Virus record (IMG/VR): IMGVR_UViG_3300022924_000016
Location: 64,001 to 128,000 of that record
Source of the DNA: a virus
Length of the DNA: 64,000 nt
Direction: 5' to 3' (one strand)
Shown here: positions 18,901 to 36,650 of the stretch, piece by piece
Numbering within the stretch: position 1 is the first letter of the stretch
Layout: each line of letters begins with the position of its first letter
Position numbers and translations under genes: made by a program
Notes under the pieces: generated by a model
Told to the model about the DNA's origin: nothing
What the model saw: the letters and a program-made list of their open reading frames with translations, nothing else
Database searches by the model: none

Positions 18901-19091
18901 GAGTTATCGTAGGAGACTATAAAAAAGTATGGCTCAATAACAGACCTGAGACTTTCACAGCAAGAACCCAGCCACAGGAGGGAAGGGATTTTACATACCT
19001 TTCACCGCAAGATTTTGTTAAATTTCAGCAAAGTCAGAATTACAAGCAGTATAAGTCTGGATACAAGACTTCAAACATAGCTTCTCGATAA
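15939..19091 (+). CDS. internal virion (cargo/ejection) protein
   Basis: Q/N-rich low complexity, GETHEKGG motif, repeated xQxGG motifs, no Cys. Confidence 0.65.
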   Translation: MSFDNLKKFLTLPKMQFGGGFDPNNPMSRYDYTSPFQFPQSQQNPNSGMSVYSGYNPDLQYQQANPYYGMSVNSGYAPAQAPAPDINWLSDLTKTMSQNIQSAQNPVTPIAQNTSTVQTPPLTAYDDGSAPQLGAISSNYKSPQTNISNLNTQGGYQFNTSGNNVTAGQALDAQTNYNKQQAEQPLKLFNPFGGVDVSAALQYGFYNAGQGNGGQATLGFGKGLLGLARQGFSAYGAGKEQRNLMNQQNNQPIYNSTPLEKGGFVDYMQKGGSVSVGKFLSGKYITDSSDQNVEIEKNEFVLNAKDGQVQKAIGETHEKGGIKTNLPEGSQVLSDHTKIGAKNAKELSKELDIKVKAKNTFADVLDKYSKKIGVEKNIEEGEKLVNQTEETLKLEETDTKQINLDFIQQETARIEQEKEELNTQQQEAFKTIFDKQESQKGNFLQEGGETVATATQEEEINPNDIVVQVQQAVAQGAPIEEIVNNLLSMGYSEDEASQIIQASQSEQQPQMQEGGVAGEPGARIGDFLKSANLIAQSKGVEPPKLDLEKGDITKNWTELQNWFVKNAPEEVISYFDEQPITNKGMEILLKNNKTALKNLGIDTNRKPNSFSLEEKRAIQEAIPLDDKFILDQFADGKVDYRFPQVSANSLSSITPQNQAINASMVSPSGNGFQEQEMTAQATDNNTQQNSAQRGRNVIPMLPVLEGLTPSAALIPRADQVRFNRLEPTLRTPEASIAAINNQTNFVNQQAFQSNPNLAPFLTATNLGTTQQSVNKAIAETDAYNAEAVNRANTYNANVGDKEQLMNINLGQNYEQRLFKTIDNQEQAWSRYLVNKQLQNKQNWMDVNNLNLTNAMTPNYQTDGSNVYFSNPRDYSTRSEQDIQFDNWYRNATPQEQIAYRNSVISKKQDGGYIYEFEDGAQPMTDQQAREVAQATGFTEDFAREYFRQQGANQTPQYQQAPQRPRVNLETDMIADITSGTNRYTPNGGVIVGDYKKVWLNNRPETFTARTQPQEGRDFTYLSPQDFVKFQQSQNYKQYKSGYKTSNIASR

Positions 19092-19178: not shown

Positions 19179-21827
19179 ATGGCAAACTATACTTCCAAGG
19201 ACATAACCCTAGCTCCCGTAACAACGAGCATTAATCTGCCTCTGATACAGCAAGTATTGCAGGTAAAACAGGGTACGTACAATCAGGCGGATGCACAAGT
19301 CCAAGCAGGATTATCTTCTCTTGAAAACTTAAAACTTTTAAGACCGCAAGACACAGAATACCTAAACTCTAAGATTAGAGGTATGACGGCTTCTTTGGAT
19401 AATATGCAGGATAAGGATTTATCTAATCCAAATGTAGCTTCAAATTTCTATTCCACTATAAAATCAGTAGCGAGAGACCCATTTGTAGTAGAGGCCGCAT
19501 CAAATACAGTGAAGTATCAACAGTTTCAAGCACAGATGCAAGACATACAGAAGAAAAATCCTGATAAGTTCCATCAGATAAACTATCAGTTTGCTTTAGA
19601 TAAGGCAGGATTAAACCAGTATATGGAAGGAGCTACAAACTCTTTGGGCAGTTTCTCTTATCATAATTATTCCGATTATAATAAAAATCTTTTGGATAGG
19701 ATGAAGACTTTGAAAGATGTCAGAGGCGACAGGGAAGTCCAAATACAAGGAAATGGAGTAAATGGCTATCCTGAAGGAACACTGATAACTAAAAAATTAA
19801 GTGGTTTAACACCTCAAGAAATTGTAGATTATGTTCCAGGCATGATGACTTCAGAAGATGATATGCAGATGAGGATAGAGGGTTGGTGGACAGGTAAGCA
19901 AAATCCGCAACAACTAGACTCAGAATTTTCGCAATACACGGAAAATAAAAAAGAACAGCTTGATTCAAGTATAAATCTATTAGAGACTAAGGTAAATAAT
20001 AAGCAGAATACGGAAGAAGAAAGAGAAACAGCCAGACAGCAATTAAGGGCTTTCAGAGCGGAAAAAGAGAATTTCTTGAAAAATAGCGCAACGGCAACTT
20101 TAGAAGAGAAGGGATATTTTGTCAAAAAGAATGATTATGTAAAAGCATTGGCAACAAGTGCAGGAGCATCTGAGAGTGTAAGTATATCCGAAGACAAAGC
20201 TTACTTTGCACGTCAAAATCTACAGTTAAAAACAGAAGAGCTAGATATAAAAAGAGCAGAGTTAGCACTAAAACAACAAAAAGCTGGAACTACAGGAGGT
20301 CTCTATGGCATGGAAGGTATTAGTGAATCGCCACTCACAGCAGAAACAGCCCCTAATATTGACCCGATAGAACAAGTTACAGAAAACTATAAATTAACAC
20401 AAGGACAGCTTACAGAAAATATCTTAGATATATACAAATCTAACGCTACAGCAAGTGAAATAAAAGACCAATACTCGGCATCTATGAATGCTATGGGATA
20501 CACGCCAGAGGGGAACTTGTTAAATGCAAATAAACAGCCAACTATAGATAAGGCAACGGCTATGTCTAAAGCTTTTGAAGACTCAAAAATGTATTTATCT
20601 AATCCTGATAAAGCAGCGGAGATTGTAAGATTGAAAACATTAGCTGATAATTCAGCCTTAGATTATAATAACACTATAGGCTCCGCTTCCAAAGAACTTT
20701 TTAACAGTGCTCCCCAAAAATACATTAGTGAATTTGTTGAAAAAATAAAAGCTTTGGAGATGGAAGATGACGGATTTATAACAGGATTATTCGGTATTGG
20801 AGGAGGTTCGGAAAGAGTACAGAATTTAACAGCTGAAGCAAGAAAGTTCATAAATGAAGTAGGGGGAGAGAGAAATTTAAAGAGTATAGGAAGCAATAAT
20901 GCGAGACTAGAAAAATTTAGAGACCTTTATGGTAAACTTTCGCAAGAAAAAGAATATAATCTGAATTTTAGATTAGGGAATATGACGTTCGCTAGAGATG
21001 TGGAGGCAAAAGCAGGAGAACTTCTTAAATCTACAGGAGTGATGACTTCTTATGGAAGTGCCAATCAAGCAACTCTTAGTAATGAAAGTCAAAATCAAAG
21101 ACTTATATCAATGATTCCTACAACGGAAGAGAGTAGACCATTTGACCCAAAGAAAAAAATAACAGTATATCAAAGAATTGTAGATGGAAGCCCTTCATTT
21201 GTAGTAGAGCAAAATGTCGGTTTTAATGAGAAAATGGGACAGATTAAAAAAGCAACAGCTGTACTGACTCCTAAAATGGCAGGATATGAATTCCTAAGAC
21301 AAAGCTTAGATATGAATGAATCTTCAAGAGGACTCAGTGCAGAAGTAGCAAAAGAAAAAATAAGTATTGCGAAAAATCCAGCATATATAAAAGATGACGG
21401 AAAGTACGCACCTAAAATTGCAGATTACCTGTTAAAAAACACTCCTCCTAACTATATAGGAAAAGCATTTTTCGCAAACCCAGCAAATTATTTGACTAAA
21501 ACTAATACGGAAGAGGCTTATTCAAATGTTTTAAGGAATAACTTTACTCCCGAACAAATACAGCAAGTTACAGAGCATATTTCAAGCCGTCTATCCCAAT
21601 ATAAAATTGATCTAGAACCCTTGGATGGAGAATGGTATATGTCTCTGGAAGATAAAGAAACAGGTGCAGATTATAGAGGTGGAAAATTAGGACAGAAAAA
21701 TTTAGAAACTCAATTTTTAAACATTGCTCAAAATTATCCTCATACAATAGTCTTAGACTTCTTTTTAAGAGACCTAGCTACAAACAATAAAAATGCATTT
21801 AATAGAATTATGAATAATGGCAGATAA
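19179..21827 (+). CDS. internal virion (cargo/ejection) protein
   Basis: 882 aa, helical/coiled-coil, Cys-free, inside cargo cluster. Confidence 0.6.
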   Translation: MANYTSKDITLAPVTTSINLPLIQQVLQVKQGTYNQADAQVQAGLSSLENLKLLRPQDTEYLNSKIRGMTASLDNMQDKDLSNPNVASNFYSTIKSVARDPFVVEAASNTVKYQQFQAQMQDIQKKNPDKFHQINYQFALDKAGLNQYMEGATNSLGSFSYHNYSDYNKNLLDRMKTLKDVRGDREVQIQGNGVNGYPEGTLITKKLSGLTPQEIVDYVPGMMTSEDDMQMRIEGWWTGKQNPQQLDSEFSQYTENKKEQLDSSINLLETKVNNKQNTEEERETARQQLRAFRAEKENFLKNSATATLEEKGYFVKKNDYVKALATSAGASESVSISEDKAYFARQNLQLKTEELDIKRAELALKQQKAGTTGGLYGMEGISESPLTAETAPNIDPIEQVTENYKLTQGQLTENILDIYKSNATASEIKDQYSASMNAMGYTPEGNLLNANKQPTIDKATAMSKAFEDSKMYLSNPDKAAEIVRLKTLADNSALDYNNTIGSASKELFNSAPQKYISEFVEKIKALEMEDDGFITGLFGIGGGSERVQNLTAEARKFINEVGGERNLKSIGSNNARLEKFRDLYGKLSQEKEYNLNFRLGNMTFARDVEAKAGELLKSTGVMTSYGSANQATLSNESQNQRLISMIPTTEESRPFDPKKKITVYQRIVDGSPSFVVEQNVGFNEKMGQIKKATAVLTPKMAGYEFLRQSLDMNESSRGLSAEVAKEKISIAKNPAYIKDDGKYAPKIADYLLKNTPPNYIGKAFFANPANYLTKTNTEEAYSNVLRNNFTPEQIQQVTEHISSRLSQYKIDLEPLDGEWYMSLEDKETGADYRGGKLGQKNLETQFLNIAQNYPHTIVLDFFLRDLATNNKNAFNRIMNNGR

Positions 21828-24800
21828 CAACTTAAATGCGCTTATAGATAATAAAACTATTTCGCCAGAACTTCAGGCAGTTGAACAGGATATTAGAACT
21901 AGAGCAAGTACTCCTCAAATAGACCCTTCTAAAACTAACGGAATTATAAGCAATATTAAAACCGATAATGACTATTTTTACAAGGCTCCTATTAACAGTC
22001 CTCAAAAGATAGCATTAGAGTCGAAAAATTACAATATAAATGATGCTTATGCTCAACTTAATGATGGTACCTACATAGCAAAATATGATACTTATAAAGA
22101 AGGAGCAAACAATAATGAGATTCATGCACAAAATCAAGGAACAGGAGAAAAGTGGCTTAATGGCTTAGCTAAATTTGGAGGCAAAACTCTAAACGCAGTT
22201 ATAGGCGGAACAGCAGGAGTTGTTTATGGAGCAGGGGCGGGAATAGCAGATTGGAAATTTGACTCTGTTTACGATAATAATTTTTCAAACTGGCTAGGAG
22301 ATTTAGATACCAAAATGAACTACAATCTTCCTAACTACTACACGCAACAGGAAACACAAAAAGGATTGGGAGGACAATTATTCACTTCTAATTTTTGGGC
22401 GGATAAAGTTCTAGGAGGATTGTCTTTTACAGCAGGAGCAATTGTATCAGAGGGTATATGGGCTTATGCAACAGGAGGAACTTCTCTAGCAACCACTACC
22501 GCAAGATGGTCTACAAGAACAGCGGGTATGGCAAGAATAGCTAGCGGGACTTCAAAGTTTTCAAGACTTTTAAAAAATTCACTCACAGTAGGAGAGGATG
22601 TAGCAAGAGTAGGTACGGGATTGGTAGATGATTCTATAAACGTGGGAAGAGCCGTAGCTTTTGGTAAGGCGGGAGATGCTTTAAACACTTTAAGATTTAC
22701 AATGACTTCGGCAGGATATGAAGCCTCCGTTGAAGCCTTGCAGTATAAAAAAGAACAAGAGGAAAACTTTTATAGAAATTTTCAAGAAAAAAACGGAAGA
22801 CAGCCCGATCAAGAAGAGATAACAGCTTTTCAAGAAAATCTAAGTTCCTCTGCAAATGCAGTTTTTGGAGTGAATATGGCTTTGGTGGGAAGTTCTAATT
22901 TGGTAACTCTAGGAAGAGTATTCAATCTAAAATCACCTGTAAAAACAGGTTTTGGAGAGATGTACAACAGAGCCTTGTATGGAATAGGAAAAGCAACGCC
23001 TTCAAGACTCCAATCCATTAATAGAAGAATATTACCCTTTGTTCAAAATGCAGTAACTGAGGGACTTTATGAAGAAGGTGGTCAATCGATTACTTCAGCT
23101 ACGGCAGGAAAATGGCTAGAACATGCTTACGATACAAACAACACAAAAGACTCTTTTGATTTAGCAGGGGCTTTATATGAAAACATTTCTCACCAATATG
23201 GTTCAAAAGAAGGATGGGTTGAGAATGGAGTAGGTATAATCATTGGTCTTTTAGGAGAGGCTGGGACAGGAAATACAAGAGGAGGAATAAGCAGGCAAGT
23301 TCAAGAATTTGAGAACCGTTCAAAATTAAATGAAACTTATACTTCAAAAGCATTATCGGAGCATTTCTTGATGATGAACCGTATTAACGGGTTTAATAAA
23401 CAATCAGAAGATGCGCAAAAAAGAGGCAATCTTACAGAAGCTAGAATAGCACAAGACGGAGTAATATTTTCACTTTTAAACAATCGTTACCAATTAGGAG
23501 ATTCTGTTTCAGATGTAGGCTTAGATATTGAAAAAGCTTTGGGAACAGTTACGCAAGACCAGCTAACAGAAATGGGAGTAGAAACTGATTTAGACACTTG
23601 GAAACAAGAACAGTCAACAGCGTTCTCAGAAGTTGCAAAATCTTTCAAAAAGAACAGACAGTTTGCAGAATATATAATAGGAAGAAATCCTGTTGCGGGA
23701 ATACAGGAATTAGAGTCAGTTAACCAACTCAATGGAATTACGGACGAAAATGGAAACTCTCGAATAAATAATCAAGAAGCTCTTATACAAAGTCTAGCTT
23801 TTACAATGATGGGTGGTCAAAGATCGCATACCACCATGAAGGAAGCTGTTCAAGAGATGTCTGAGATTTTAGATTATGAAAAAGTAAAGGCTTTAGATAC
23901 AATATCTAGCTTAGAAACAGTAACTCAAGAAAAAAGAAATCAAGTAAATATTGCTATAAACAGAAGCAATTCTTTAGAGGAGCAAAGAGGAAGACTTGTA
24001 GAACAGTTAAGAAATATTCAGGAAACCACGCAAGGGGATACTGACACAGGAACTAAAGTTTTGAGGTTATCTGACAGGCTTGCAAAACTTACAAACCTGA
24101 TTGATTCTAATAATACAGAATTACAGCAACTTGCAGATGAAGTAAATCTAAATAACAAAACTTTAGAACAGACCACAGGCGTAAACCTAAATCAAGGTTT
24201 AGATATTCAGAGTATCAGTGTAGAGGACTTAAAAAACCTTGATTCAAATATCAAAAATTTAGGGTCTGTAATGGATGCTATAAAAGCTTCTAATCCTGAA
24301 AATTCTGCCAGACTTGAAGCAATTTTAGAAGAGTACAAGAACTCTAGAAAAACATTTGGAGCTTATCAGTCAACTGTATTAGCTTTCAGGGATGGAAAAG
24401 TAAACATTGATAACATCAATACTTTAGTTGGGCGCAAAGTCTTAAAAAAGAACAAAAACTTAGATTCGGCAACAAAAGAGTGGCTGTCAGAAATTTTAGG
24501 AAATTACTCAAAACAAGCTGTAGACGCTTTAGATGAGTTAACTAAAATTAACAACAGAACCACTGTTATTTCAAACGAGTCTATAGTAGATAAGAGAAGA
24601 AGAGGTGATACTTTATCAGAAGAGGAACAAACGTACTACAACGAAAATAAGACGGAGATAGATACTTTTATGAAAAGAGAGCCTATACTTCCAGTTGTAC
24701 CCTTACCAACAGCTAAAACTAAACTTCAATACCTGAGAGAAAGACTTGCTAATTTAGTTTCTAGGTCTAATAACTCCTTGACTTTTATTGGGACTTCAAC

Positions 24801-27069
24801 AGACGAATTTCTTTTAGAAAAACCAACACAAGCGGAAGTAGCAGAATACCAAAATCTATTAAGAGGAGAAACGGGGGAAAAAGCACAACTTTATCAAAAA
24901 CTTGACAATTTATATGAAACACTTTTATCCAATGGGAACAGTGAATCAGAAGCAGAAAGACTAGCTTTAGAATCGCTAACAGAGCAAGAAAGAAATCTTT
25001 TAAGACAGAGAAGTCCGAAAAGAAGAGAAGTGGAAAACTCTTCTGAATTAATAGTAGGCCAAAGGGTAAGCACTCTGACCGACCAAGGAACGGTTACTTC
25101 AATTGATGGAGAATTGGTAACTATTGACTTAGACCAAAAAGGAACATTGACCGCAAACCCAAGACTTGTAGAAATTTTTACCGAGCCTTCAGTAGTAAAC
25201 GTAGATAGATTAGAGCTGTTAAGGGAAAAATTATCAAATTGGAAAGTTTTAGACAGTTTCATAAATGAGGAAGGACTAACAATGGCTGACCTTGCAGAAT
25301 TGATTCAACAGCAACAGCAGAACATTTCAGAGCAAGAAACCATAACTGAAATCACAGAAGATGATTCTTATGCTATGACTCAAGAATCTCAAGCAGGAGA
25401 AAAACTTGATGATTATACTCTGGCACAAAATGTCACAGGAAATGCCACAATAAAGAGAAATAAAGACGGCTCTGTGACTTTGCATCACATATCAGCACAA
25501 TCTCTGGTAAATATCATAGGGGAGCCTTTCCAAGCTACAAGAAAAGGCAAGCCTATTGATATATCGGAAATCGCAATAGGCGATATAGTTACGACAGAAA
25601 GTGGATTAATGTTTTCAGTAGAGTCAGGAAACATCTTGAAAACGAGGAGTGAAGCATTTGATAACATCCCTCTTTTAGTAGTAAGAAGTGCCTCTACAAG
25701 CTGGACTTATGCAGATTTATACTATTTTAACGGTTCGGAGTATGTAAAGAAACCTTCAGACTTTTTTGAAGATATCCAAGCAGATGAGATTTATAATCTT
25801 GAACAAGGCGCGCCTATAAGATTTGAAATTGACAGGCAGGACAGTTACACAAAACAGCTTTTAGATAAATACAAAAAATCACCCACGGAAGAAAATCGAA
25901 AAGCTTTAACAGACGGTATTAAAATTTATTTAGTTTCAAAGGGTAGAAGAATTTCAACTTTAAAAGGAGAAAGAGGCGCATCACCTGATAATTTCAAGCT
26001 TTTAAGAGAAAAGGCTTTTGAATTAGCTATACAGGACAGCTATGAAGCAGACCTCCAAGCAACTTCAACAGTTTCGGCAGTATTTTTAGGGAGCCCTCAA
26101 TTTTTCATTTCAGAAGACGGGCAGTTAGAATCAAGACCATTCACAGAAACTTCATTAGATAAAGTTTTGACTAAAGGGTATATTTTAAATGGTGAAGTCG
26201 TAACATCAGAAGACCTACCACAAGTAAATACTTCCTACGTATCTAAGATTTCAAGAAAATACCCTCAAAGAAAAATGCCCTTGGTGGTTGTAAAAAGAGG
26301 TGAAAATTACGTAGCTTTGCCAATATTTTTGAATAAATCACCTTTAGGGCAAAGAGGATTAGACATGGTGGAGAATGCCATAGAAACAGCCACGAGTCCA
26401 ATAGAAGTTGCAAAGAACTTGAATGCACTGATTAACCAAGAAGGTATCAGAACTGAAAAGGTACTACCGCAAGAAGTTACAGATGAAAATCTTGAAAGAA
26501 TCAGAACAGCTTTTCAAGAACATTTAATTTTCACAACAGCAGATGAAATAGCTTCACAAGATTATAACAAATCTAATCTTTTAGTGGATGCTCAGATGTA
26601 TATTGACGCAGATAATCTAGAACAGGTAATCAATGCTCCAAAAGTAAGAATAGATATTCAAAATATGCTTTTCAATCAAGAAGCAACCTTTGATACATCT
26701 GATGTCAAAACTTCGGTGGAAAATGAATTAGATACTTTAGCAAAAGACCTTTATAACGATTTCATAAGAAATGCTTCCGCAACTTACGTAAATTCCAAAG
26801 GAGATATCATAGAAAATTCCTATACGGATGCCTTTGACGAAGAAAGTATGATGGAAGGGAGTTCACACCTTGATAAACTTCACAACATACGAATTTTAAG
26901 AGAAGCTTTCAAAGTGGATTTCTCTAAAAATAAGATTTTGAGGGATGCTGTAGGAAACGACAAGATTGAAAGAATAAAAATTCTTTTCGGTATTTTAGAT
27001 AACATCAACAAACAAGTAAAGCCTAAAGAAGATATTCTGAAATCGGGCAATAACAACACTAAATGTTAA
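21817..27069 (+). CDS. large internal virion/ejection protein with N-terminal Gly-rich hydrophobic helices
   Basis: 1750 aa; hydrophobic segments AVIGGTAGVVYGAGAGIA, VLGGLSFTAGAIV; single Cys is the last residue. Confidence 0.65.
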   Translation: MADNNLNALIDNKTISPELQAVEQDIRTRASTPQIDPSKTNGIISNIKTDNDYFYKAPINSPQKIALESKNYNINDAYAQLNDGTYIAKYDTYKEGANNNEIHAQNQGTGEKWLNGLAKFGGKTLNAVIGGTAGVVYGAGAGIADWKFDSVYDNNFSNWLGDLDTKMNYNLPNYYTQQETQKGLGGQLFTSNFWADKVLGGLSFTAGAIVSEGIWAYATGGTSLATTTARWSTRTAGMARIASGTSKFSRLLKNSLTVGEDVARVGTGLVDDSINVGRAVAFGKAGDALNTLRFTMTSAGYEASVEALQYKKEQEENFYRNFQEKNGRQPDQEEITAFQENLSSSANAVFGVNMALVGSSNLVTLGRVFNLKSPVKTGFGEMYNRALYGIGKATPSRLQSINRRILPFVQNAVTEGLYEEGGQSITSATAGKWLEHAYDTNNTKDSFDLAGALYENISHQYGSKEGWVENGVGIIIGLLGEAGTGNTRGGISRQVQEFENRSKLNETYTSKALSEHFLMMNRINGFNKQSEDAQKRGNLTEARIAQDGVIFSLLNNRYQLGDSVSDVGLDIEKALGTVTQDQLTEMGVETDLDTWKQEQSTAFSEVAKSFKKNRQFAEYIIGRNPVAGIQELESVNQLNGITDENGNSRINNQEALIQSLAFTMMGGQRSHTTMKEAVQEMSEILDYEKVKALDTISSLETVTQEKRNQVNIAINRSNSLEEQRGRLVEQLRNIQETTQGDTDTGTKVLRLSDRLAKLTNLIDSNNTELQQLADEVNLNNKTLEQTTGVNLNQGLDIQSISVEDLKNLDSNIKNLGSVMDAIKASNPENSARLEAILEEYKNSRKTFGAYQSTVLAFRDGKVNIDNINTLVGRKVLKKNKNLDSATKEWLSEILGNYSKQAVDALDELTKINNRTTVISNESIVDKRRRGDTLSEEEQTYYNENKTEIDTFMKREPILPVVPLPTAKTKLQYLRERLANLVSRSNNSLTFIGTSTDEFLLEKPTQAEVAEYQNLLRGETGEKAQLYQKLDNLYETLLSNGNSESEAERLALESLTEQERNLLRQRSPKRREVENSSELIVGQRVSTLTDQGTVTSIDGELVTIDLDQKGTLTANPRLVEIFTEPSVVNVDRLELLREKLSNWKVLDSFINEEGLTMADLAELIQQQQQNISEQETITEITEDDSYAMTQESQAGEKLDDYTLAQNVTGNATIKRNKDGSVTLHHISAQSLVNIIGEPFQATRKGKPIDISEIAIGDIVTTESGLMFSVESGNILKTRSEAFDNIPLLVVRSASTSWTYADLYYFNGSEYVKKPSDFFEDIQADEIYNLEQGAPIRFEIDRQDSYTKQLLDKYKKSPTEENRKALTDGIKIYLVSKGRRISTLKGERGASPDNFKLLREKAFELAIQDSYEADLQATSTVSAVFLGSPQFFISEDGQLESRPFTETSLDKVLTKGYILNGEVVTSEDLPQVNTSYVSKISRKYPQRKMPLVVVKRGENYVALPIFLNKSPLGQRGLDMVENAIETATSPIEVAKNLNALINQEGIRTEKVLPQEVTDENLERIRTAFQEHLIFTTADEIASQDYNKSNLLVDAQMYIDADNLEQVINAPKVRIDIQNMLFNQEATFDTSDVKTSVENELDTLAKDLYNDFIRNASATYVNSKGDIIENSYTDAFDEESMMEGSSHLDKLHNIRILREAFKVDFSKNKILRDAVGNDKIERIKILFGILDNINKQVKPKEDILKSGNNNTKC

Positions 27070-27073
27070 TAAA

Positions 27074-29371
27074 TTGAGCTGTAATATAATAAGAGAAAAT
27101 GGAGAAATAAGAGTAGTGACGGATCAAGATACTCCGTCATTGCTTTTCCAGGAGCTAAAAGAAAAATTCACCCAAGAAGAAGCTTTAGAAATCTATAAGG
27201 CTTCTAAATCAGAGGCTTTTGAAACTGTCAACAGAGCTAAGAATGCTTTATTATACTCAGTGAACCAAACTGATGTAAGACTTTCTAGGCAAATCAATGG
27301 AAACTCAATCTCCTATATTCCGACAATCAGAGGAAAAAGAATAGGAACTTTGAGGATAAAAGGGGACAGGGTAGATATGATAACTATTTATGACGCTTTC
27401 AAAGGCAAAGGATACGGAAAGAGTCTTTACAAGCAAGTGGCTAAAGATTTATTTCAGAGAGGAGTACAGCTAAAAAGCGATAATGCTTCAAGTCAAGATG
27501 ATTTGAATGTGTGGGAGTCCCTTGTGAGAGATAATCTTGCCGAGCAGACACCGGACGGCAGATATCAGTTCCTACTCCAAAACAGCTACCCAAACGGCGA
27601 ACCCTCAATGCAAAGCGTCTTAGAATTCCTAAGAAATCAAAACCGCACACAAAGGGAACTTGACACAGAGGAAAGAATAGAACTTAAAAATTTATCTTTA
27701 GGATTTCAAGGAGATTTAAAAGCGGAGATGAACAGGGTATTTTATGACCAAGAAAATTTTTTTACAATAGTCCCGCAAAAAATGCAATCTTTATATTCGC
27801 AATATGAAATTGACAGGATTTTGAAATCACCAAGCCTGCAAAATCAAATAAAAGAAAGTTTAGAAGCATTTCAAAATACGGAATTTGATTTAGTTACAGA
27901 ACAAGAGGTGCCACAAGAACAGTTAGTAAAATCAAGCACAATAGGAAAGTTTGGAAAAGCCCTTTATGAGAATCCAAACCGTCTAAAACAAGATTTGATG
28001 GAGGAAATTGCTGGCGTAGAGGAAGACATGTTTGAAGAAAATCCTTTTATAACTTTAGAAGAATCACAAGAATTTGTAAAAGCAAGAGTTTTAGCAGATG
28101 TAGACGGAACGATAGTAGAGCCTAATCTAGGAGACCGTTTAGCGATTTCGGCTACAATCTTAAAGAATCCTTATAAGGCTGTTTCTGCAATTGTCAAAAT
28201 TACAAATATCTCAGATGAAACTCTTCTAGAAAATCCACAAGAAACTTATAAAGCTCTGAGCAACATTGAAAACGAAGCCTTGAAAATGGGGATAGATGTC
28301 ATAGGAATAAAAGACCAAGCAGATAATCCAACTCTGAAACCTTTCTTAAATGCTTTAGGGGGTGTTATGGAAAATCCCATAGAAGAAAACTTGGCAACAT
28401 TTTCTAAACTCTACTCAGAATTCTTTCCAAGGCAAATCCAAGAAACAAAAGCAATAAGACAGCCTAATGACAGAGATTATATCTACCTAAGAACAGCTTT
28501 GAGTGAGGGTGAAGTTTTCAATCAAATAGGGGCGATAAAAAAAGCGGAAAACGTTTATGTTCAAGTTAATGATAAAACTTTAGAAGAACTCTATGAAATA
28601 GCTTCATATTACAACCCAAGCCTCACACAACAGGAGAACCAAAGACAGGCTCTGAGAATAGAATCGCCCGAAAGAGAAACAGCAGAAAAAATAAATTTAT
28701 TTAAAACTATTTTAGGTTTCGAGGGTGTAAATGAGGGAATTAGTGAGGGTATGAACGAAACTGCTTTCACAGGAAACTACGAATACCTTACAAATGATTT
28801 CGTGGCAGAATTCAATATAAAATCCCTAAGAGAAAAGAAAAAGAATTCTCCAATGTGGCTCAATTTCTATTCAAATTTTGAAATTAATGAGCAAGGTATA
28901 AATTTAAAATATACAGACGACTCAACACTGTCAACAGTAGAAGAGTTAGCTGATGAAAATTTAAGGCAGTACTCTTTGATTTCAAAACAAATGCCGAATC
29001 TGAACCAAACTACTTTAGATGAGAATCCAGATATATCTCAAAAAGAAAGAGATTTTTACGTGAACAATCCACAGATGGCACCTCTGATGCAAAGTCCCAC
29101 AATAGTAGATTCAGAAACCCTAATATCGGATAGTCAAGAAAGGTTCACTAAAAGACAAGATGGAAGTTTATGGGAAAATGTGTTCACTCAAAATGGCAAA
29201 AGCTTATTTAAAAGACAAATGGTAAACAGATCGCAATACAATACCTTTGGAAACCCAAAACCACAATTTAATGAATATGACTTTGACTTGAAAGCAAGCA
29301 TGTCAGATAATTCAAATGTTAAAGATTCCCTAAAAGCAAAAAATATATTAAAAGAAAGTTTTGATTGTTAA
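27074..29371 (+). CDS. internal virion protein containing a GNAT acetyltransferase domain
   Basis: FKGKGYGKSLY acetyl-CoA motif A plus downstream LKSD...VWESL; TTG start; Cys only at residue 3 and at the C-terminus. Confidence 0.65.
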   Translation: MSCNIIRENGEIRVVTDQDTPSLLFQELKEKFTQEEALEIYKASKSEAFETVNRAKNALLYSVNQTDVRLSRQINGNSISYIPTIRGKRIGTLRIKGDRVDMITIYDAFKGKGYGKSLYKQVAKDLFQRGVQLKSDNASSQDDLNVWESLVRDNLAEQTPDGRYQFLLQNSYPNGEPSMQSVLEFLRNQNRTQRELDTEERIELKNLSLGFQGDLKAEMNRVFYDQENFFTIVPQKMQSLYSQYEIDRILKSPSLQNQIKESLEAFQNTEFDLVTEQEVPQEQLVKSSTIGKFGKALYENPNRLKQDLMEEIAGVEEDMFEENPFITLEESQEFVKARVLADVDGTIVEPNLGDRLAISATILKNPYKAVSAIVKITNISDETLLENPQETYKALSNIENEALKMGIDVIGIKDQADNPTLKPFLNALGGVMENPIEENLATFSKLYSEFFPRQIQETKAIRQPNDRDYIYLRTALSEGEVFNQIGAIKKAENVYVQVNDKTLEELYEIASYYNPSLTQQENQRQALRIESPERETAEKINLFKTILGFEGVNEGISEGMNETAFTGNYEYLTNDFVAEFNIKSLREKKKNSPMWLNFYSNFEINEQGINLKYTDDSTLSTVEELADENLRQYSLISKQMPNLNQTTLDENPDISQKERDFYVNNPQMAPLMQSPTIVDSETLISDSQERFTKRQDGSLWENVFTQNGKSLFKRQMVNRSQYNTFGNPKPQFNEYDFDLKASMSDNSNVKDSLKAKNILKESFDC

Positions 29372-29389
29372 TAAAGTTTACTATATTTG
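29360..29389 (+). promoter_or_regulatory. Bacteroidota promoter for the methyltransferase
   Basis: TTTG 29360-29363, 18-nt spacer, TATATTTG 29382-29389. Confidence 0.6.
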
Positions 29390-29405
29390 CTGAAAATATA
29401 AAAAT

Positions 29406-30326
29406 ATGGATAGAGGAATAAATGTTTTTGGAGCTTTTGATGGAATGAGTAATGGTCAAATAGCTTTAGAAAAACAAGGAATTAAAGTAAATAAATATTA
29501 TGCTTCTGAAATTGAAAAAGAGCCTATAGTTATAACGCAAAAAAATTATCCAAACACAATTCAATTAGGAAGTATTACCGAAATAGAGAATATTGATTGG
29601 CCAGCAAGGAAGATTGATCTATTTATAGGAGGAAGCCCTTGTCAAAATTTCAGTTTTGCAGGCTCTGCACAAGGATTGAGACAAGATAATATAGAAATTA
29701 CAAATCTAGAAAAGTATAATAAATTAAAACAAGAGAATTTTGTCTTTGAGGGACAATCTTATTTGTTTTGGGAATATGTTAGACTTTTAAAAGAGGTTCA
29801 AAAAGTGAATCCTCAAGTAAAGTTCCTCTTAGAAAATGTCAAGATGGCAAAAAAATGGGAGAATGTAATTACAGAAGCTTTGGGTGTAAAACCAAAAGAA
29901 ATAAATTCAAAACACTTTTGTGCCCAAAATCGACCTAGACTATATTGGACTAACATACAAATAGACAGTTTACCAAATAATGGCGATGTTATAAAAGACA
30001 TACTAGAAAAAGATGCAGATTTTAATTTCAACTATGCAGGATGGATGCTAAATAAATGGGGTGAAAAAAGAAGATTGGATCAATTCTTTAATGTAGATAA
30101 TAAAGCTAGTTGTTTAACTGCAAACATGGCAAAAGGTCAAAAACCAAGCTACTGTGTAAATGACGAAAAAGCAATACATAAATTTACAGTTAATGAATGC
30201 GAAAGGCTCCAAACAGTACCCTTTGATTACACGAAAGGTGTTTCTAATGGAGCAAGATATAAAATGCTCGGTAACGGTTGGACAGTAGATGTCATAGCCC
30301 ATATATTTAAAAACTTAAAACAATAA
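29406..30326 (+). CDS. C5 cytosine DNA methyltransferase
   Basis: FDGMS (motif I), GGSPCQ (IV), LLENV (VI), QNRPRLYW (VIII), LGNGW (X). Confidence 0.92.
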   Translation: MDRGINVFGAFDGMSNGQIALEKQGIKVNKYYASEIEKEPIVITQKNYPNTIQLGSITEIENIDWPARKIDLFIGGSPCQNFSFAGSAQGLRQDNIEITNLEKYNKLKQENFVFEGQSYLFWEYVRLLKEVQKVNPQVKFLLENVKMAKKWENVITEALGVKPKEINSKHFCAQNRPRLYWTNIQIDSLPNNGDVIKDILEKDADFNFNYAGWMLNKWGEKRRLDQFFNVDNKASCLTANMAKGQKPSYCVNDEKAIHKFTVNECERLQTVPFDYTKGVSNGARYKMLGNGWTVDVIAHIFKNLKQ

Positions 30327-30327
30327 A

Positions 30328-33300
30328 ATGGCTTGTGAAATAATTTATAAGAATGGTAGACAAGTTGGAGTAAACGCTCCTGATGGCAGACCTTCTTTAG
30401 TTTTCAATCAAATACTCAATATCCCACATATCCAAGACTTTCAAGAAGCTCTAAAAGGGTATACAAATCTTTTAGCGGATAATAACAATGAAGAATCTCC
30501 AATCAGCTTTCAAAACCAAGGTCAAGAATTTCAAACTTTAAAAGAGGCTCTTAAAAACAGCCAACCAAATTCTGAAATCCAAGTAGTTACAAACGGAAAG
30601 TCTTTTATGACAATTGACACTACAATAAATCCTCAGACTCGTTCAGGACTTTTAAATTCCCTAATCAAAGAAGACATTCTGACGGGAAATTCTTTTTTAG
30701 ACGTTGACGGCGCAAAAGTCTTAGAAGTAACAGGAAACAACGAACAGGAAAAAGCGGTCTACGCCGATGTAGCCAGAACAGTTTCAAAACGATATAAAGG
30801 TGCATTTTCAGCCTTAGTTGGACAGGATAATAATATTACTTTCAGAGAAAGACAGGAAGTTCCCAAATCAGAAACTTTTACCCAGCTTACTCAAAGATTT
30901 GATGAACCAACAGCAGTTTTTATCAAGACTTTAGAAGAAATAAGTTTGGAGACTAATGCAAATAATTCTGCTTTAGAAGAGATTCAAATCATTCCTGAGA
31001 ATCAGCTACAAGAAAAACTATTACAGCTACTAAACAAGTTAGGCGTAAAGACTACATCCATTGAAAAGTGGGCGGAAAAATACGCTCAAAAGAATGGTTA
31101 TGAACCATCGGCAAAAGCTCTAGCAGATTTGGCAAATAACATCGTAGCCTTTAAAGATGGTATTATCACGCAAGCAGATTTAACAGAGGAAGTGAGTCAC
31201 TTTATTATTGCAACTTTAGATGAGGAGCAGATAGCAAACCAAAAAAGAAATGTACATAGAACTAAAGAGTGGGCGGAATTTGCAGAACAATACTTCGAAA
31301 TCTACTCAGAGACTTTAGAGGGAGAAGGCTTAGAAGATGCTGTCAGAGAAGAAATTTTAGGAAAGGTTTTAGCTAATTCACTTTTAGATAATTTTGCAAG
31401 AGAAGGTGAAACTACTTTGGAAGGCGGTATTGTTGCAACTTTAAGAAACTTCTTCCAAGACTTCTTTAATAGAGTTTATGACTTCTTTCAGCCAAACTAT
31501 CAAACCCAACTAGAAACATTCACAGAACAAGTTTATAGAGACCTTATGAATGACTCCTTGGACGTAGATGTAAGAAACAAGGAGAACAAGTCTTATACGC
31601 TCTATAATTCAGCAGGACGTACAGCTTTAGCCCAAACTATTCAGAAGTCTTATGAAACACTTTTGAATCAGCAATATGCTCTAAGAAATTCTTCGGCGAA
31701 TAAAAATACCTTAAACAAATTAAAGCAGACAATTGCACTTACAGATGAAGCTTCCTTGAAAAATTCAACTCTACAATTAGTAGCAGTTGCAAATTCTCAA
31801 GCAAATTCACTTTTGAAATCTTTAGAAACCGCCGATAAAAATTCAAGACACTTCACGTCAGAAGAAAATGGAGTATTTCAATCAACAGTTTCAAGACTTG
31901 CTCCGATGCTAAGACAAATCAGAGAAAGCATAAATGACAAGGCTATTGCAAAACAGATCGATGATGTCCTGCAAAAGATTTCTACAATTGAAGGAAGAGT
32001 TCCCGCAACAAATACAAAGGCAAGAGATTTGATTGTTGAGAGAGTTATTAGAAAGAACAATATGACTCCTGAACAGGCTAATAAATACCGTGAGTATATA
32101 GACAACATTTCAAGAACAGCAGAAGCAGATACAGGCTGGTTGCATGCCCACTTGGGAGGATTAATCAATTCAAGAGACGGACTTTTAAATTTGGCGGGAG
32201 AAATTATAGAGAGAACACAATATCAAGAAAGAACAACACATCAAAACCAAACTAAGCCTTTTTTAAACCGTTTAGAAGCTTTAGGACTGACAGAAAGCCA
32301 AATTCCCACAACACTAAAAAAGCTTATCTATAATGGCGGAATAATAAACGAAACAGATCCTCAAAAAGTATTGGAAGTCGATAATACAGAAAAAGCTAGA
32401 ATTTTGTCTGTAATTTTAAGAGAGCCTCTAACAAAAGAAACAGTTCAAGAAAAGATTGATTCTATGCAAAGCGAATATGACTCCTTGCAAAGAGAACTCA
32501 CAGCAAATAAAGAATTAAGCCAAGAAGATATTGACAAGAAAACGCAAAACAGGGACGAGATATCAGGACAGCTTGCTAACTTGGAAAAAGAGTTTAGAAA
32601 GACTTTTACTCAAAGATTCGAGTCTTATTTTGATCCAAAATACTTAGAGAAACTTCAAAACTTCTCTATTGTGACAAACGGCGTAACAATTGACAGAACT
32701 TCTATTCCAGATGATGTCTTACAGTTGGATAAATTGTATCGTTCTCAAATCGGGGAAATAAAAAAACAAGGAGAACTTACTTCAAGTGAAATCGCGGAAA
32801 TAAAAAATTTAACAAAACAAAAACTCCAAGAGGCAAATCCAAGGTATTCTGATGGAAAATTGAAAAAAGGAGTTTTGGAAGTCTATGATAGAGAGTTAAA
32901 AAAGTTTACTTATTTCTTAGATGCCTCGGAAGACTTATCAGATTTAGATTTTTCAGAAGCTCAAAAAGTCGTAGGATTGCAAAACCTGATGCTTCTAAAT
33001 TCAGAATTCTATAAAGGCAATTCAAACTCACAAGGAATCACTCAGAAGTTTTTAGATGAATTAAACAGCTTGAGTACAGAGCAAGAAAAATTTGACTTCT
33101 TGAACAATAATGCAACAACAGCTTTCACTCAAGATTTCTGGGACAATTTCGATCCTAACAACTCTTTGGTGGCAAGACTTTTGGAGGTGGGTTCGCCCGA
33201 AGCTTTAGAATTCGCGCAAAACATCAGAGAACAGCAGTCAATAATCTCTACAATAATTCGCGGGAATAAAAGTATGTCAAATCCTTCGGAGGTAGACGTA

Positions 33301-35892
33301 TTTGATATGAATGACATAGAAATGTCAGCTGTCAGGGATGCCCAATCTATTTTGGAAGTTCAGACCGCCGAGGCAAGAAACATTCTAGAAGAACAAGAAA
33401 CAACAGAAATTCAATCAGTTTCAACAGTTAATGAAAGCTACAGAAAAGATTTACAATCTAATGGAATCACTTCAAACAGTCCGCAAGAAATTGATTTTAT
33501 ATTAAAACACGTAACTTCAAACGGTAGAAGCAGTATAGAATCTTTAAGAAGAAACTTGCAGAGATTGCAAAAAGGAGAGTCTGTCATTATGACTGATTTT
33601 TTAAGGAACTTAACTGATGGAAGAACAGACTATGACAATGTCTTATCAGAATTTGCGAGAAGAAAACTTTTACCATATTATAAAAGAACAGAACCGCAAG
33701 GATTTACGGAAGCCTATGAAGAACTAAAAAGAAATGTCTCTGAAAACCAATCGGGAGCAGTTTTAGATTTTATTGAAAGCGGTATAGTAGAAGTAAAACC
33801 AAGTTGGAGCTATTATGACGCAATGGCAAATGTAAACCCTAAATGGATTGAAAATCGTGACGCGCAAAGAGACCAATACACAGAAGCCTATAAAAACTCT
33901 GTAAGGAATGATGAATACTACCAAAGATATGGAATAGACGAGCAAGGAAACGCCACACAAAACATTCAAGAGTTCGAAGCCAGAAAAATACTTCTAGAAT
34001 ATAACGACCAAAGTTTGGAAAATTATGGTATCCAAGCAACACATGACAGATACCAATTACCGCAGTTTTTAAGGAGCGCGACAAGAAGATTAACAGACGG
34101 CTCAAATAAACTAAAATCCCTAAAAGAAATCGCCTCAGATATGACAGGTATCAGAGAGGATGAAGCAGATTTAGGACAGGATGTATCAGGAAATCTCGCC
34201 AAAAAAGGAGACAGCCTATTATCGGTTCCAACTTACGGGGTAAGAAAATTGAAAGACCAAACAGATGTAACAGACGAACTTTTATTGTCTTATGCAATGT
34301 TCAACCAACAGTCAGCATTATACAAAGCAAGAAGAGAAAACATCTCAGATATGCTGGTATTGGAAGATTTCATATTGTCAAAAGAAAGAGATTATCCAGG
34401 CAAAAAAGCGGAAGCAACAAACACCTATAAAATGTTCAATTCATTTCTAAAATCAAATTTCTATGGCGTAAAAGAAACATTCAGCCAAGAAGTAACAGTT
34501 TTAGGGAAAAAAGTGGATTTAGGAAAACTGGCAAGAACTTTCAACAGCTGGGTAAGATTCTCAAATTTAGCGGGTGTGACAGTACCATTGACTTCGGCTC
34601 TGCAAGGAAAAACTCAAGAATTTTTAGAGGTGGCTGTAGGTGAAGTTTTAGATAGAACGGCTTACAAGGAGGCGCAGAAAGAATTTGCAAGGAAAGGAAG
34701 TCAGCAGGCGGGAGAAATTTTAAAATATAATGGGAAAGCTGAGATTTCAGTCTATGGTGAGCGTTTTGGATTATACAATCTGACAGAAAGATTTGAAAAC
34801 TCTTACATTGGAAGAGCGGGGAGAGGTATTTTGAAATCATCGTCACTTTTGCATAGTTTGGGCAACTTTCCTGTAACAACGACCGTGATGCTTTCTGTAA
34901 TTTACGACTATAGAGTTTATGGAAACGAAGTTATTACATATAGACAGTTTAAGGAGATTAATAATGGAAAAGACGACAGATTACTTTGGGAAAAACAACC
35001 TCTATTCAAAGATTTAATCCCTGTAAAAGATGGTGTTATTGCGCCTAATTACAAAGGTATCTCTGAACAGTTAAACATAAGTGAAGAGGAAGCTGTTGAA
35101 AAAACAGACTTGATTTTAGAAGCAATTAATGCTAGAACGGCTTCGGCGGTTCAGAGAGTCGATTCTCAGATAAAAGAAAGTGACAAGTCAATTGCGGCTA
35201 GGGACAGTCGATCTAACTTTTTCTTACTTCATCAAGGATGGTTTTTGGTTGCGCTACAAAATAAGACAAAAAACTATCACTATAACATTTCGGAGGGGAC
35301 ATATCAGGAAGGGAACCTAAGAACTACCTTAAATTTAATAAACAATCTTGCCCAAAATGTTTTAAAACCAAAAGAATTAAAAAGAATTTGGCAAGAAAAT
35401 ATGGCAGATGAGTTATCAAGAAGAAATCTTAGACGTACGGCATATGAGATAGCTTTAGCCAATATATTAGCAATTGCGGCAATACTTTTAGCCAACATGG
35501 CAGATGAACCCGACGATCCAGCATACCTACTGACAATGAGTGATTACTTTCTTACAAGAGTAGCGGTTGAGCAGATTTCAGGAACAGTTGCTCTACCATT
35601 AAATGTTGACCAAATGCTTTCAGACCCTTTGATTATTAAAACTAAATTTGAAGACTTGATGAAAATAGATGAACTATTTAGTTCTGACTTGGTATCAACA
35701 GGAAGTTTCGCAAATGAGACAAAAAGATACCGTTGGCTATCTAAAAACTTACCTTTTGTTAAAGACTATCACAGGTTTTCTGACCTATCCAAAGCCCGTG
35801 ATACCTATGCGTACTTTTCAGTGGAAAAACCAAATTTGTTTAGGAATTGGGCTTGGTTATCAAATTTAGCAGAAAACGAATCAGAAGAATAA
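30328..35892 (+). CDS. large internal virion/ejection protein with degenerate zincin-like domain
   Basis: 1854 aa; EEVSH plus downstream EE; C-terminal hydrophobic helix IALANILAIAAILLA; single Cys at residue 3. Confidence 0.65.
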   Translation: MACEIIYKNGRQVGVNAPDGRPSLVFNQILNIPHIQDFQEALKGYTNLLADNNNEESPISFQNQGQEFQTLKEALKNSQPNSEIQVVTNGKSFMTIDTTINPQTRSGLLNSLIKEDILTGNSFLDVDGAKVLEVTGNNEQEKAVYADVARTVSKRYKGAFSALVGQDNNITFRERQEVPKSETFTQLTQRFDEPTAVFIKTLEEISLETNANNSALEEIQIIPENQLQEKLLQLLNKLGVKTTSIEKWAEKYAQKNGYEPSAKALADLANNIVAFKDGIITQADLTEEVSHFIIATLDEEQIANQKRNVHRTKEWAEFAEQYFEIYSETLEGEGLEDAVREEILGKVLANSLLDNFAREGETTLEGGIVATLRNFFQDFFNRVYDFFQPNYQTQLETFTEQVYRDLMNDSLDVDVRNKENKSYTLYNSAGRTALAQTIQKSYETLLNQQYALRNSSANKNTLNKLKQTIALTDEASLKNSTLQLVAVANSQANSLLKSLETADKNSRHFTSEENGVFQSTVSRLAPMLRQIRESINDKAIAKQIDDVLQKISTIEGRVPATNTKARDLIVERVIRKNNMTPEQANKYREYIDNISRTAEADTGWLHAHLGGLINSRDGLLNLAGEIIERTQYQERTTHQNQTKPFLNRLEALGLTESQIPTTLKKLIYNGGIINETDPQKVLEVDNTEKARILSVILREPLTKETVQEKIDSMQSEYDSLQRELTANKELSQEDIDKKTQNRDEISGQLANLEKEFRKTFTQRFESYFDPKYLEKLQNFSIVTNGVTIDRTSIPDDVLQLDKLYRSQIGEIKKQGELTSSEIAEIKNLTKQKLQEANPRYSDGKLKKGVLEVYDRELKKFTYFLDASEDLSDLDFSEAQKVVGLQNLMLLNSEFYKGNSNSQGITQKFLDELNSLSTEQEKFDFLNNNATTAFTQDFWDNFDPNNSLVARLLEVGSPEALEFAQNIREQQSIISTIIRGNKSMSNPSEVDVFDMNDIEMSAVRDAQSILEVQTAEARNILEEQETTEIQSVSTVNESYRKDLQSNGITSNSPQEIDFILKHVTSNGRSSIESLRRNLQRLQKGESVIMTDFLRNLTDGRTDYDNVLSEFARRKLLPYYKRTEPQGFTEAYEELKRNVSENQSGAVLDFIESGIVEVKPSWSYYDAMANVNPKWIENRDAQRDQYTEAYKNSVRNDEYYQRYGIDEQGNATQNIQEFEARKILLEYNDQSLENYGIQATHDRYQLPQFLRSATRRLTDGSNKLKSLKEIASDMTGIREDEADLGQDVSGNLAKKGDSLLSVPTYGVRKLKDQTDVTDELLLSYAMFNQQSALYKARRENISDMLVLEDFILSKERDYPGKKAEATNTYKMFNSFLKSNFYGVKETFSQEVTVLGKKVDLGKLARTFNSWVRFSNLAGVTVPLTSALQGKTQEFLEVAVGEVLDRTAYKEAQKEFARKGSQQAGEILKYNGKAEISVYGERFGLYNLTERFENSYIGRAGRGILKSSSLLHSLGNFPVTTTVMLSVIYDYRVYGNEVITYRQFKEINNGKDDRLLWEKQPLFKDLIPVKDGVIAPNYKGISEQLNISEEEAVEKTDLILEAINARTASAVQRVDSQIKESDKSIAARDSRSNFFLLHQGWFLVALQNKTKNYHYNISEGTYQEGNLRTTLNLINNLAQNVLKPKELKRIWQENMADELSRRNLRRTAYEIALANILAIAAILLANMADEPDDPAYLLTMSDYFLTRVAVEQISGTVALPLNVDQMLSDPLIIKTKFEDLMKIDELFSSDLVSTGSFANETKRYRWLSKNLPFVKDYHRFSDLSKARDTYAYFSVEKPNLFRNWAWLSNLAENESEE

Positions 35893-36650
35893 TGGCAATA
35901 AAAAGATCAGATAGAGTAGGAGAAAAATTCATAACTAGGCAGGGATACTCAGGCGAAATAGTAAGTTATACAAATTCTTATGTTTCAACAGTTAAGTTAT
36001 CAGATGGCACTTTTATTGATAATGTAGCCTATGAGAGAATAAGTGACGGATGTCTTAAAAACCCTAATCATAGAAATGCTTTAGGTATTGGGTTCCAAGG
36101 ACAGGGTAAATATACTTTTACACAATATCCTGAAATAGAACAAAAATGGAGATCAATGATATCTAGATGTTATTCAGAAGCAGTTCATAAAAGACAACCT
36201 GCTTATATTGGGTGTTCTGTCTCAGAAGAATGGCATAATTTCCAAGTTTTTGCCGAATGGTATGAAAATAACTATAATCCTGAGTATATGAATTCAAGTT
36301 GGCATTTAGATAAGGATATTATTTGCAAAGATTGTAAAACTTACTCATCAGAAAATTGTGCTTTCATACCTCGTGAAATCAACAACTTATTTTTAAAATC
36401 TGCCAAAGTAGATAATAATTGCCCAAGAGGAGTGTCTAAGAAAAAACAAGGAGGGAAGTATCACATTAATTTATCTCTAAAGGTAACTAAAGGTTTCAAA
36501 GGATATTTCATTACACCCGAAGAAGCTTTTAAAGTATTCAAAGACATGAAAGAGCAACATATAAAAGAAGTCGCCGACAAATGGAAAGACCTAATCGATC
36601 CAAGAGTTTACGAAGCACTCTATAATTATAGAGTAGAAATAACAGATTAA
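35892..36650 (+). CDS. HNH-type homing endonuclease
   Basis: WRSMISRCY, WHNFQVFAEW, WHLDKD, YSSENC, AP2-like C-terminus; ATG in TAATG overlap preferred to 35847. Confidence 0.8.
   Translation: MAIKRSDRVGEKFITRQGYSGEIVSYTNSYVSTVKLSDGTFIDNVAYERISDGCLKNPNHRNALGIGFQGQGKYTFTQYPEIEQKWRSMISRCYSEAVHKRQPAYIGCSVSEEWHNFQVFAEWYENNYNPEYMNSSWHLDKDIICKDCKTYSSENCAFIPREINNLFLKSAKVDNNCPRGVSKKKQGGKYHINLSLKVTKGFKGYFITPEEAFKVFKDMKEQHIKEVADKWKDLIDPRVYEALYNYRVEITD

Follow-up and report, generated by a model that had tools for sequence, protein, structure and literature searches.

Facing terminal cysteines in three large cargo proteins of a Lightbulbvirus-like phage suggest a disulfide-linked ejection chain

In the pre-ejectosome of cyanopodophage A4, solved by cryo-electron microscopy, the C-terminal helix of gp27 is inserted into gp26 (PMC12002296; PDB 9K2V, 9K3A), and a disulfide is seen between cysteine (Cys) 1715 of gp27 and Cys5 of gp26 (PMC12002296). 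The internal virion proteins of this phage are present in multiple copies (5+5+10+10), and the paper describing them leaves the clasp ungeneralised (PMC12002296). In the A-4L genome, these two residues are the only Cys of two proteins of 1717 and 1114 amino acids (aa), respectively, encoded by consecutive genes. The ejection proteins of Schitoviridae (N4 gp50; DEV gp71, gp72, and gp73) are Cys-suppressed, which has been rationalised by their passage through the oxidising periplasm (PMC11445570). The cargo proteins of crAss-like phages have been detected in virions by mass spectrometry and, in some phages, are fused into one polyprotein (phi14:2 preprint; crAss001 atlas); neither source mentions the cysteines of these proteins, and when we searched the literature for descriptions of Cys at the ends of crAss or Lightbulbvirus cargo proteins, the A4 paper was the sole result. 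Here, we explored a stretch of viral DNA of 64,000 nucleotides (nt) (IMG/VR record IMGVR_UViG_3300022924_000016, positions 64,001 to 128,000; hereafter, the window, meaning this whole stretch), in which three large proteins, denoted X, Y, and Z, carry Cys solely at their facing ends, and we propose that these are Cys-purged cargo (ejection) proteins that are probably joined head to tail by disulfides in the virion.

The virion module on the + strand of the window opens with a Cys-rich structural protein of 2458 aa, a homologue of gp043 of Cellulophaga phage phi17:2, followed by six large proteins, the last three of which are the following.

21817..27069, + strand: X, 1750 aa; the sole Cys is the last residue (TGT, 27064-27066, then TAA)
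27074..29371, + strand: Y, 765 aa, TTG start; the only Cys are Cys3 (27080-27082) and Cys765, the last residue (29366-29368)
30328..35892, + strand: Z, 1854 aa; the sole Cys is Cys3 (30334-30336)

The six proteins, 6,891 aa together, contain 4 Cys, compared with ~109 expected (Poisson P ~2e-41) from the rate in the other + strand open reading frames (ORFs) of the window, that is, a frequency of 0.06% in the block vs 1.58% elsewhere, and all four lie within 3 residues of facing protein ends. An earlier reading of this DNA, made from the letters alone (the sequence-only reading), had given this Cys count and the codon coordinates, all of which proved exact on recount. Its description of X, Y, and Z as consecutive has to be corrected: Y and Z are not adjacent, a methyltransferase gene that it did not mention (29406-30326) lying between them. 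The TTG start of Y is located four bases past the X stop, and a 92%-identical homologue at locus L003 has ATG at the same codon.

One 144-kb IMG/VR contig is ~90% identical to the window, and the nearest cultured relatives, at ~27% protein identity, are the Cellulophaga phages phi17:2 and phi4:1 (genus Lightbulbvirus, 145 kb). We consider the phage most likely a marine-type, Lightbulbvirus-like phage of Bacteroidota; this group, with genomes of ~145 kb, is not classified in Crassvirales. The syntenic block of phi17:2 shows the same pattern: Cys is absent from gp042, gp041, and gp040 (the latter two being counterparts of the 1050-aa and 882-aa proteins of the window); the sole Cys of gp039 (1957 aa) is the residue at its C-terminus; gp038 (517 aa) contains just Cys4 and Cys516; and Cys3 is the only one in gp036 (1914 aa). 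Here, an unrelated 119-aa gene likewise separates the Y and Z counterparts. The products gp036, gp038, gp040, gp041, and gp043 are annotated as ‘virion structural protein’, gp039 as ‘structural protein’, and gp042 as ‘tail protein’, labels that, gp042 excepted, were given by similarity to phi4:1. With virion placement drawn from these homologues, X, Y, and Z are most likely packed in the particle and injected.

The terminal positions of the Cys recur in ~300 homologues at 22-50% identity across the X, Y, and Z families. Among the best 120 of 684 X homologues, 118 contain just one Cys, located in the four C-terminal residues, and this set of 120 totals 121 Cys in 209,719 aa. The Y family, sampled as 150 representatives of 50%-identity clusters (234-2807 aa), has a Cys content of 0.21%; 138 of the representatives carry a Cys in both the N-terminal eight and the C-terminal four residues, and 132 have exactly those two, with most of the exceptions being fragments. 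The Z family was covered by 43 homologues that share 26-89% identity and reach 3,119 aa in length; 40 of them carry exactly one Cys, at residue 3-6, and 2 of the exceptions resemble mis-called starts; a search for longer, fused Z homologues yielded no fusion and one Z of 3,520 aa, which has extra domains and Cys3 alone. When 80 viral-contig loci were grouped into 17 Z clusters, the rule was kept in all 15 clusters with a visible neighbouring X or Y; in the other two, Z sits at a contig end. The terminal Cys is thus near-universal in all three families. The rule also holds with X or Y encoded on the opposite strand, as for Y relative to Z in loci L017 and L022, and therefore is not a by-product of gene junctions.

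Two other explanations of the terminal Cys were considered and rejected. Translational coupling, read-through, or frameshifting, proposed as the cause of Cys codons at gene ends, does not fit the variable X/Y spacing (a 4-nt gap in the window vs a 17-nt overlap in phi17:2) or the opposite-strand genes that obey the rule. A role as N-terminal nucleophile or lipobox is incompatible with the variable Cys position (3-6) and the lack of a signal peptide.

Gene fusions provide a natural control. P0185 (2380 aa; contig L136), a Y-family representative that came out of the Y-family search, is an in-frame Y-Z fusion, in which residues 1-634 align to Y 1-731 and residues 621-2364 to Z 63-1831. The missing portion corresponds precisely to the tail of Y plus the module of Z, each with its Cys; the single Cys left is at residue 3, and X upstream of the fusion (1985 aa) retains its single Cys as the last residue. 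In crAss002, gp33 (4245 aa), also a Y+Z fusion, starts with MSC at an internal Met and has no Cys in residues 2140-3119, the zone that must hold the junction, and X (gp32) still ends with ..SFVCS; no remnant of the Z module was found at the gp33 junction, Smith-Waterman scores being no better than those of shuffles. Because they are lost in Y-Z fusions, the tail, the module, and the Cys pair appear to be needed only in separate proteins. Furthermore, because fusion drops the Y tail together with the Z module but keeps the X tail and the Y module, the most straightforward assignment pairs the tail of Y with the module of Z and the tail of X with the module of Y.

The elements of the putative clasp, along with the hydrophobic segments of X and Z, are located as follows.

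27074..27253, + strand: candidate N-terminal acceptor module of Y, ~60 aa, with Cys3, a beta-hairpin, and helices (AlphaFold2 (AF2) model; homology to the Z module)
29267..29368, + strand: C-terminal tail of Y, residues 732-765, with a short helix (751-761), then ..ESFDC (absent from the Y-Z fusion P0185)
30328..30513, + strand: candidate N-terminal acceptor module of Z, residues 1-62 (AF2 model; homology to the Y module)
35446..35502, + strand: hydrophobic helix of Z, residues 1707-1725, Kyte-Doolittle (KD) score 1.96, the one clearly hydrophobic helix of the block, within the region aligned to phi14:2 gp65
22189..22914, + strand: Gly/Ala-rich, moderately hydrophobic segments of X, residues 125-143, 198-216, and 348-366 (KD 1.3-1.4)

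The AF2 model of the Y module comprises strands 5-8 and 11-15 and helices 23-59, with predicted local distance difference test (pLDDT) values of 65-86, and that of the Z module a hairpin (4-8/11-16) plus helices (pLDDT 79-90); in both, the beta-hairpin begins directly after the Cys. The homology of the two modules claimed by the sequence-only reading is borne out by BLASTP (E 2e-5, 38% identity over 29 aa). Across an alignment of 27 homologues, M1, C3, and F26 of the Z module are invariant, and the module shows a weak structural match to residues 2-95 of phi14:2 gp66 (PDB 6VR4, Z score 4.6). On the donor side, Cys is the sole invariant column across the last 150 aa of 18 Y proteins, and the motifs of the two tails differ, roughly N-[ST]-x-C in X and F-[DNE]-C in Y. 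A single-chain AF2 model of the whole of Y has a confident N-terminal module and is uninformative on docking in cis vs in trans. Hydrophobic helices had also been placed at both outer ends of the chain; this holds for Z, whereas the X segments are merely moderate in hydropathy, and they fall inside the region (111-457) that BLASTP aligns to phi14:2 gp67.

Apart from the clasp, residues 223-410 of Z (30994-31557) display a weak likeness to the zincin-like domains of anthrax lethal factor, Certhrax, and PPEP (VIA Z score ~4-5), and E287, E288, and H291 are invariant in this region. This weak match fits the zincin-like protease domain reported for the orthologues of phi14:2 gp65.

The match between the Z module and the N-terminus of gp66, the virion RNA polymerase of phi14:2, led to the genome of that phage, which presents the same terminal-Cys rule: the lone Cys of gp67 (1797 aa) is at the very C-terminus, gp66 (2180 aa; PDB 6VR4) contains just Cys3 and Cys2179, and gp65 (1421 aa) just Cys3. 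In crAss001, gp47 has Cys2339 of 2341 residues, gp50 has Cys5, Cys2404, and one internal Cys, and gp49 has Cys5, with gp47 encoded on the strand opposite gp50 and gp49; DAC15 obeys the rule as well. IAS virus was excluded from the evidence owing to ambiguous bases and split ORFs. The relationship extends to homology: a Z profile matches gp65 of phi14:2 (HHalign probability 98.5%, E 1.5e-15, 438 columns) over the C-terminal ~440 aa of Z, crAss001 gp49 matches the phi17:2 homologue of Z (tblastn E 1e-6), and X yields a single weak pairwise BLASTP match to gp67 (E 2e-4, 23% over ~350 aa, at matching N-terminal positions). Thus, the crAss-like affinity guessed at by the sequence-only reading holds insofar as X and Z have homologues among the crAss cargo proteins, the similarity of X being weak. 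The middle protein is different. In the RNA polymerase cargo blocks of Crassvirales (gp67-gp66-gp65; gp47-gp50-gp49), Y is the virion RNA polymerase, a two-barrel enzyme with a DFDxD motif, whereas the Y of the window is not a polymerase; at 765 aa, it is about one third the length of gp66, and its model has no significant PDB fold match, 6VR4_A appearing only at E 0.5. No DFDxD-like motif was detected in eight Y-type proteins of related loci (751-2584 aa; a scan that did not include the window Y). Given the homology of Z to gp65 and gp49 and the weak likeness of X to gp67, we regard the window block as a relative of the crAss RNA polymerase cargo block, with a non-polymerase protein in the middle position.

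The chain appears to vary in length among the relatives. Locus L012 encodes two Y-type proteins (818-2251 and 7398-9221), with unrelated, partly Cys-rich genes between them, which would give three clasps.

Two Y-type proteins are present in some relatives (L012; also L007, 7146-9524), one of them with a different N-terminus, MSKIKCFQG.., which is shared by the Z-type protein P0027 and may represent a second type of acceptor module. Separately, longer Z homologues contain extra enzyme domains just past the N-terminal module (P0009, P0012, and P0038; L014, 10001-16240), namely, ART-PolyVal with LPD23, PolyA_pol with HD, MuF_C, and, in L014, an insert with an HELSH motif. Because all these enzyme-domain inserts are Cys-free, they suggest that Z serves as a carrier for injected effector domains.

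The A4 structure is the closest precedent for the proposed bond. As in the window, a giant upstream protein has its sole Cys no more than 3 residues from the C-terminus, the sole Cys of the next protein is at residue 5, the C-terminal segment docks on that protein, and the neighbouring ejection proteins are Cys-poor. By contrast, A4 has two proteins and one bond, whereas the window has three proteins (four in some relatives) with a two-ended adaptor, and the A4 acceptor is described as all-alpha domains, compared with the small hairpin-plus-helix module of the window. Searches of PDB sequences with X, Y, and a Z profile (phmmer, hmmsearch) gave no match, and hence none to A4 gp26 or gp27, HHalign assigned Z and A4 gp26 a probability of 0.2%, and no 9K2V or 9K3A chain was listed by Foldseek and a wide VIA search with the Z N-terminal model. 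Given this lack of sequence and fold similarity, A4 is best regarded as analogous or, at most, very remotely related.

A version with two proteins also occurs in Leptolyngbya phage Lbo-JY46: the first (1552 aa) ends in its sole Cys, and the next (2748 aa) has no Cys other than Cys4. Three genes upstream of this X/Z-type pair, Lbo-JY46 encodes a 674-aa protein (L133, 2626-4650) with a single Cys at residue 5 (MKKKC) and with no evident C-terminal-Cys partner, the upstream ORF not being Cys-ended.

Schitoviridae resemble the window in that their giant ejected proteins are nearly Cys-less; however, those proteins are essentially without Cys, whereas the purge in the window spares one Cys per facing end. 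T7-type core proteins (gp14, gp15, and gp16) share with the window a run of internal virion genes starting with an SLT-domain protein. No homology of these proteins to the window block was found beyond the SLT domain, and we know of no covalent links between them.

We propose that the flexible C-terminal tail of X, ending in Cys, would dock on the ~60-aa N-terminal module of Y and form a disulfide, and that the tail of Y would likewise dock on the module of Z to form a second one. The product would be an unbranched pseudo-polyprotein X-Y-Z of ~4,370 aa, presumably with 1:1:1 stoichiometry. Because the links would sit at chain ends, such a chain could pass a narrow channel like a single polypeptide; it would set the exit order of the cargo, and the reducing cytoplasm of the host would then separate the three proteins. 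The other Cys were likely purged because nothing else should cross-link in the packed capsid or the oxidising periplasm. The disulfide of the window phage, the order of ejection, and the release by reduction are what we infer from this arrangement, with the formation of a disulfide by such a Cys pair borrowed from the solved structure of another phage, A4; in effect, the A4-type clasp would be extended to a multi-protein chain. The pairing of each C-terminal Cys with the Cys of the next N-terminal module, which was the core of the sequence-only reading, is well supported on comparative grounds by the conservation, the P0185 fusion, and, by analogy, the A4 disulfide.

Several points weigh against this scenario. 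Virions assemble in the reducing cytoplasm, and gut crAss phages live without oxygen; because of such an assembly environment, the disulfide would have to form late. The assignment of tails to modules draws mainly on gene order and the two fusions, and the Y tail (the last ~35 residues) is of low confidence in the single-chain AF2 model (pLDDT ~30). A4, in which alone the disulfide has been observed, is an analogy, with no detected sequence or fold similarity to X, Y, and Z. Finally, a distant gut-type group retains the terminal Cys, yet has 2-3 extra internal Cys in Y and Z.

The alternative that survives best, albeit an unlikely one, keeps the disulfides and changes their topology: the X tail could bond to the Z module with Y closed on itself, or like could pair with like (X-X and Z-Z dimers, Y-Y rings or polymers) in multi-copy cargo layers. 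Indeed, N-terminal and C-terminal Cys counts balance under any such scheme, podophage internal virion proteins are multi-copy, as in A4, and tails are not assignable to modules from sequence alone. Nevertheless, the A4 bond is heterotypic and follows gene order, the conserved motifs of the X and Y tails differ, and fusion removes the Y tail and the Z module jointly while sparing the Cys of the X tail and the Y module, which would be unexpected if X bonded to Z or Y closed on itself.

Less probable still is that the docked terminal thiols form no disulfide and instead hold a metal ion (Zn, Fe, or Cu) or engage in other thiol chemistry. Such a mode of binding would suit the reducing cytoplasm at assembly and the anoxic gut habitat of the relatives, and two or four thiols would be able to bridge a metal. 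However, there is no conserved His or further Cys near the motifs, given the three invariant residues of the Z module and the lone invariant Cys of the Y tail; genomes with two Y-type proteins would bring six thiols, which fits pairs and not one Cys4 site; and A4 has a disulfide, while crAss001 virions contain disulfides in the tail.

We consider it improbable, slightly more so than metal binding, that each terminal Cys anchors the cargo to another Cys-containing part of the virion, such as the portal, the inner capsid face, or the 2458-aa protein. The latter neighbour does have 36 Cys, and tail and portal-vertex proteins of crAss001 are linked by many disulfides, but anchoring leaves unexplained both the matched numbers of N-terminal and C-terminal Cys and their joint loss in fusions, and the A4 bond joins the two cargo proteins to each other. 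That low-Cys proteins merely happen to have their few Cys near the ends can be given practically no credence, for although a scarcity of Cys by itself has been described for phage proteins that are ejected (PMC11445570), the depletion is extreme and the recurrence of the terminal positions in homologues refutes chance or composition.

The remaining members of the block and the gene between Y and Z are listed below.

14170..15942, + strand: Cys-free virion protein with an N-terminal SLT lytic transglycosylase domain, 590 aa (Pfam SLT E 1.2e-9; 0 Cys)
15939..19091, + strand: Cys-free virion protein, 1050 aa (phrog_36695, virion structural protein, E 1.6e-51; 0 Cys)
19179..21827, + strand: Cys-free virion protein, 882 aa (phrog_32131, E 1.7e-42; 0 Cys)
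29406..30326, + strand: C5 cytosine DNA methyltransferase gene, 306 aa, 5 Cys (Pfam DNA_methylase E 4e-30; phrog_116)

The PHROG matches of the 590-aa protein are labelled transglycosylase and internal virion protein with endolysin domain, and the other members of the block match PHROGs labelled virion structural protein. Directly upstream of the block, the 2458-aa virion protein (6816-14192), with its 36 Cys (1.46%), contrasts sharply with the next six. The methyltransferase gene is an insertion between Y and Z and lies outside the proposed chain. More generally, the gap beside Y, in most cases the one that separates Y from Z, is an insertion hot spot for unrelated genes: the C5 methyltransferase occupies the Y-Z gap in the window and in L003 (9043-9999), and other inserts in this gap are the 119-aa gene of phi17:2 (L001, 21162-21521) and a 248-aa Cys-rich gene (L012, 9254-10000). 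The gut-type group has ~5 kb of small genes at the Y gap (L028, 4124-9407), and in L004 a 145-aa gene (7141-7578) lies just upstream of Y and not in the Y-Z gap. At the other end, the cargo block closes with what is probably a homing-type insertion, an HNH endonuclease ORF (35847-36650; phrog_953, E 1e-60; 7 Cys) that shares 46 nt with the 3' end of Z.

How several megadaltons of phage cargo protein exit the capsid in an ordered manner is an open question, and the proposed clasp, being conserved and readable from sequence, is concrete and cheap to test on cultured phages, namely, phi4:1, phi17:2, phi14:2, crAss001, and DAC15. Tentatively, and with somewhat less than even confidence, we suggest that disulfide-clasped pseudo-polyproteins, with ordered single-thread exit and cytoplasmic reduction as a substitute for a protease, are a general device of large podophage-like viruses, including the Lightbulbvirus group, Crassvirales, and cyanophages such as A4 and Lbo-JY46. 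The clasp itself, if real, would also account for the occurrence of the cargo proteins as separate chains in certain phages and as fusions in others. For annotation, it provides a simple means of identifying cargo chains and the order of their members, including those whose genes are scattered or located on opposite strands, and it suggests a redox-cleavable linker principle for protein delivery into bacteria.

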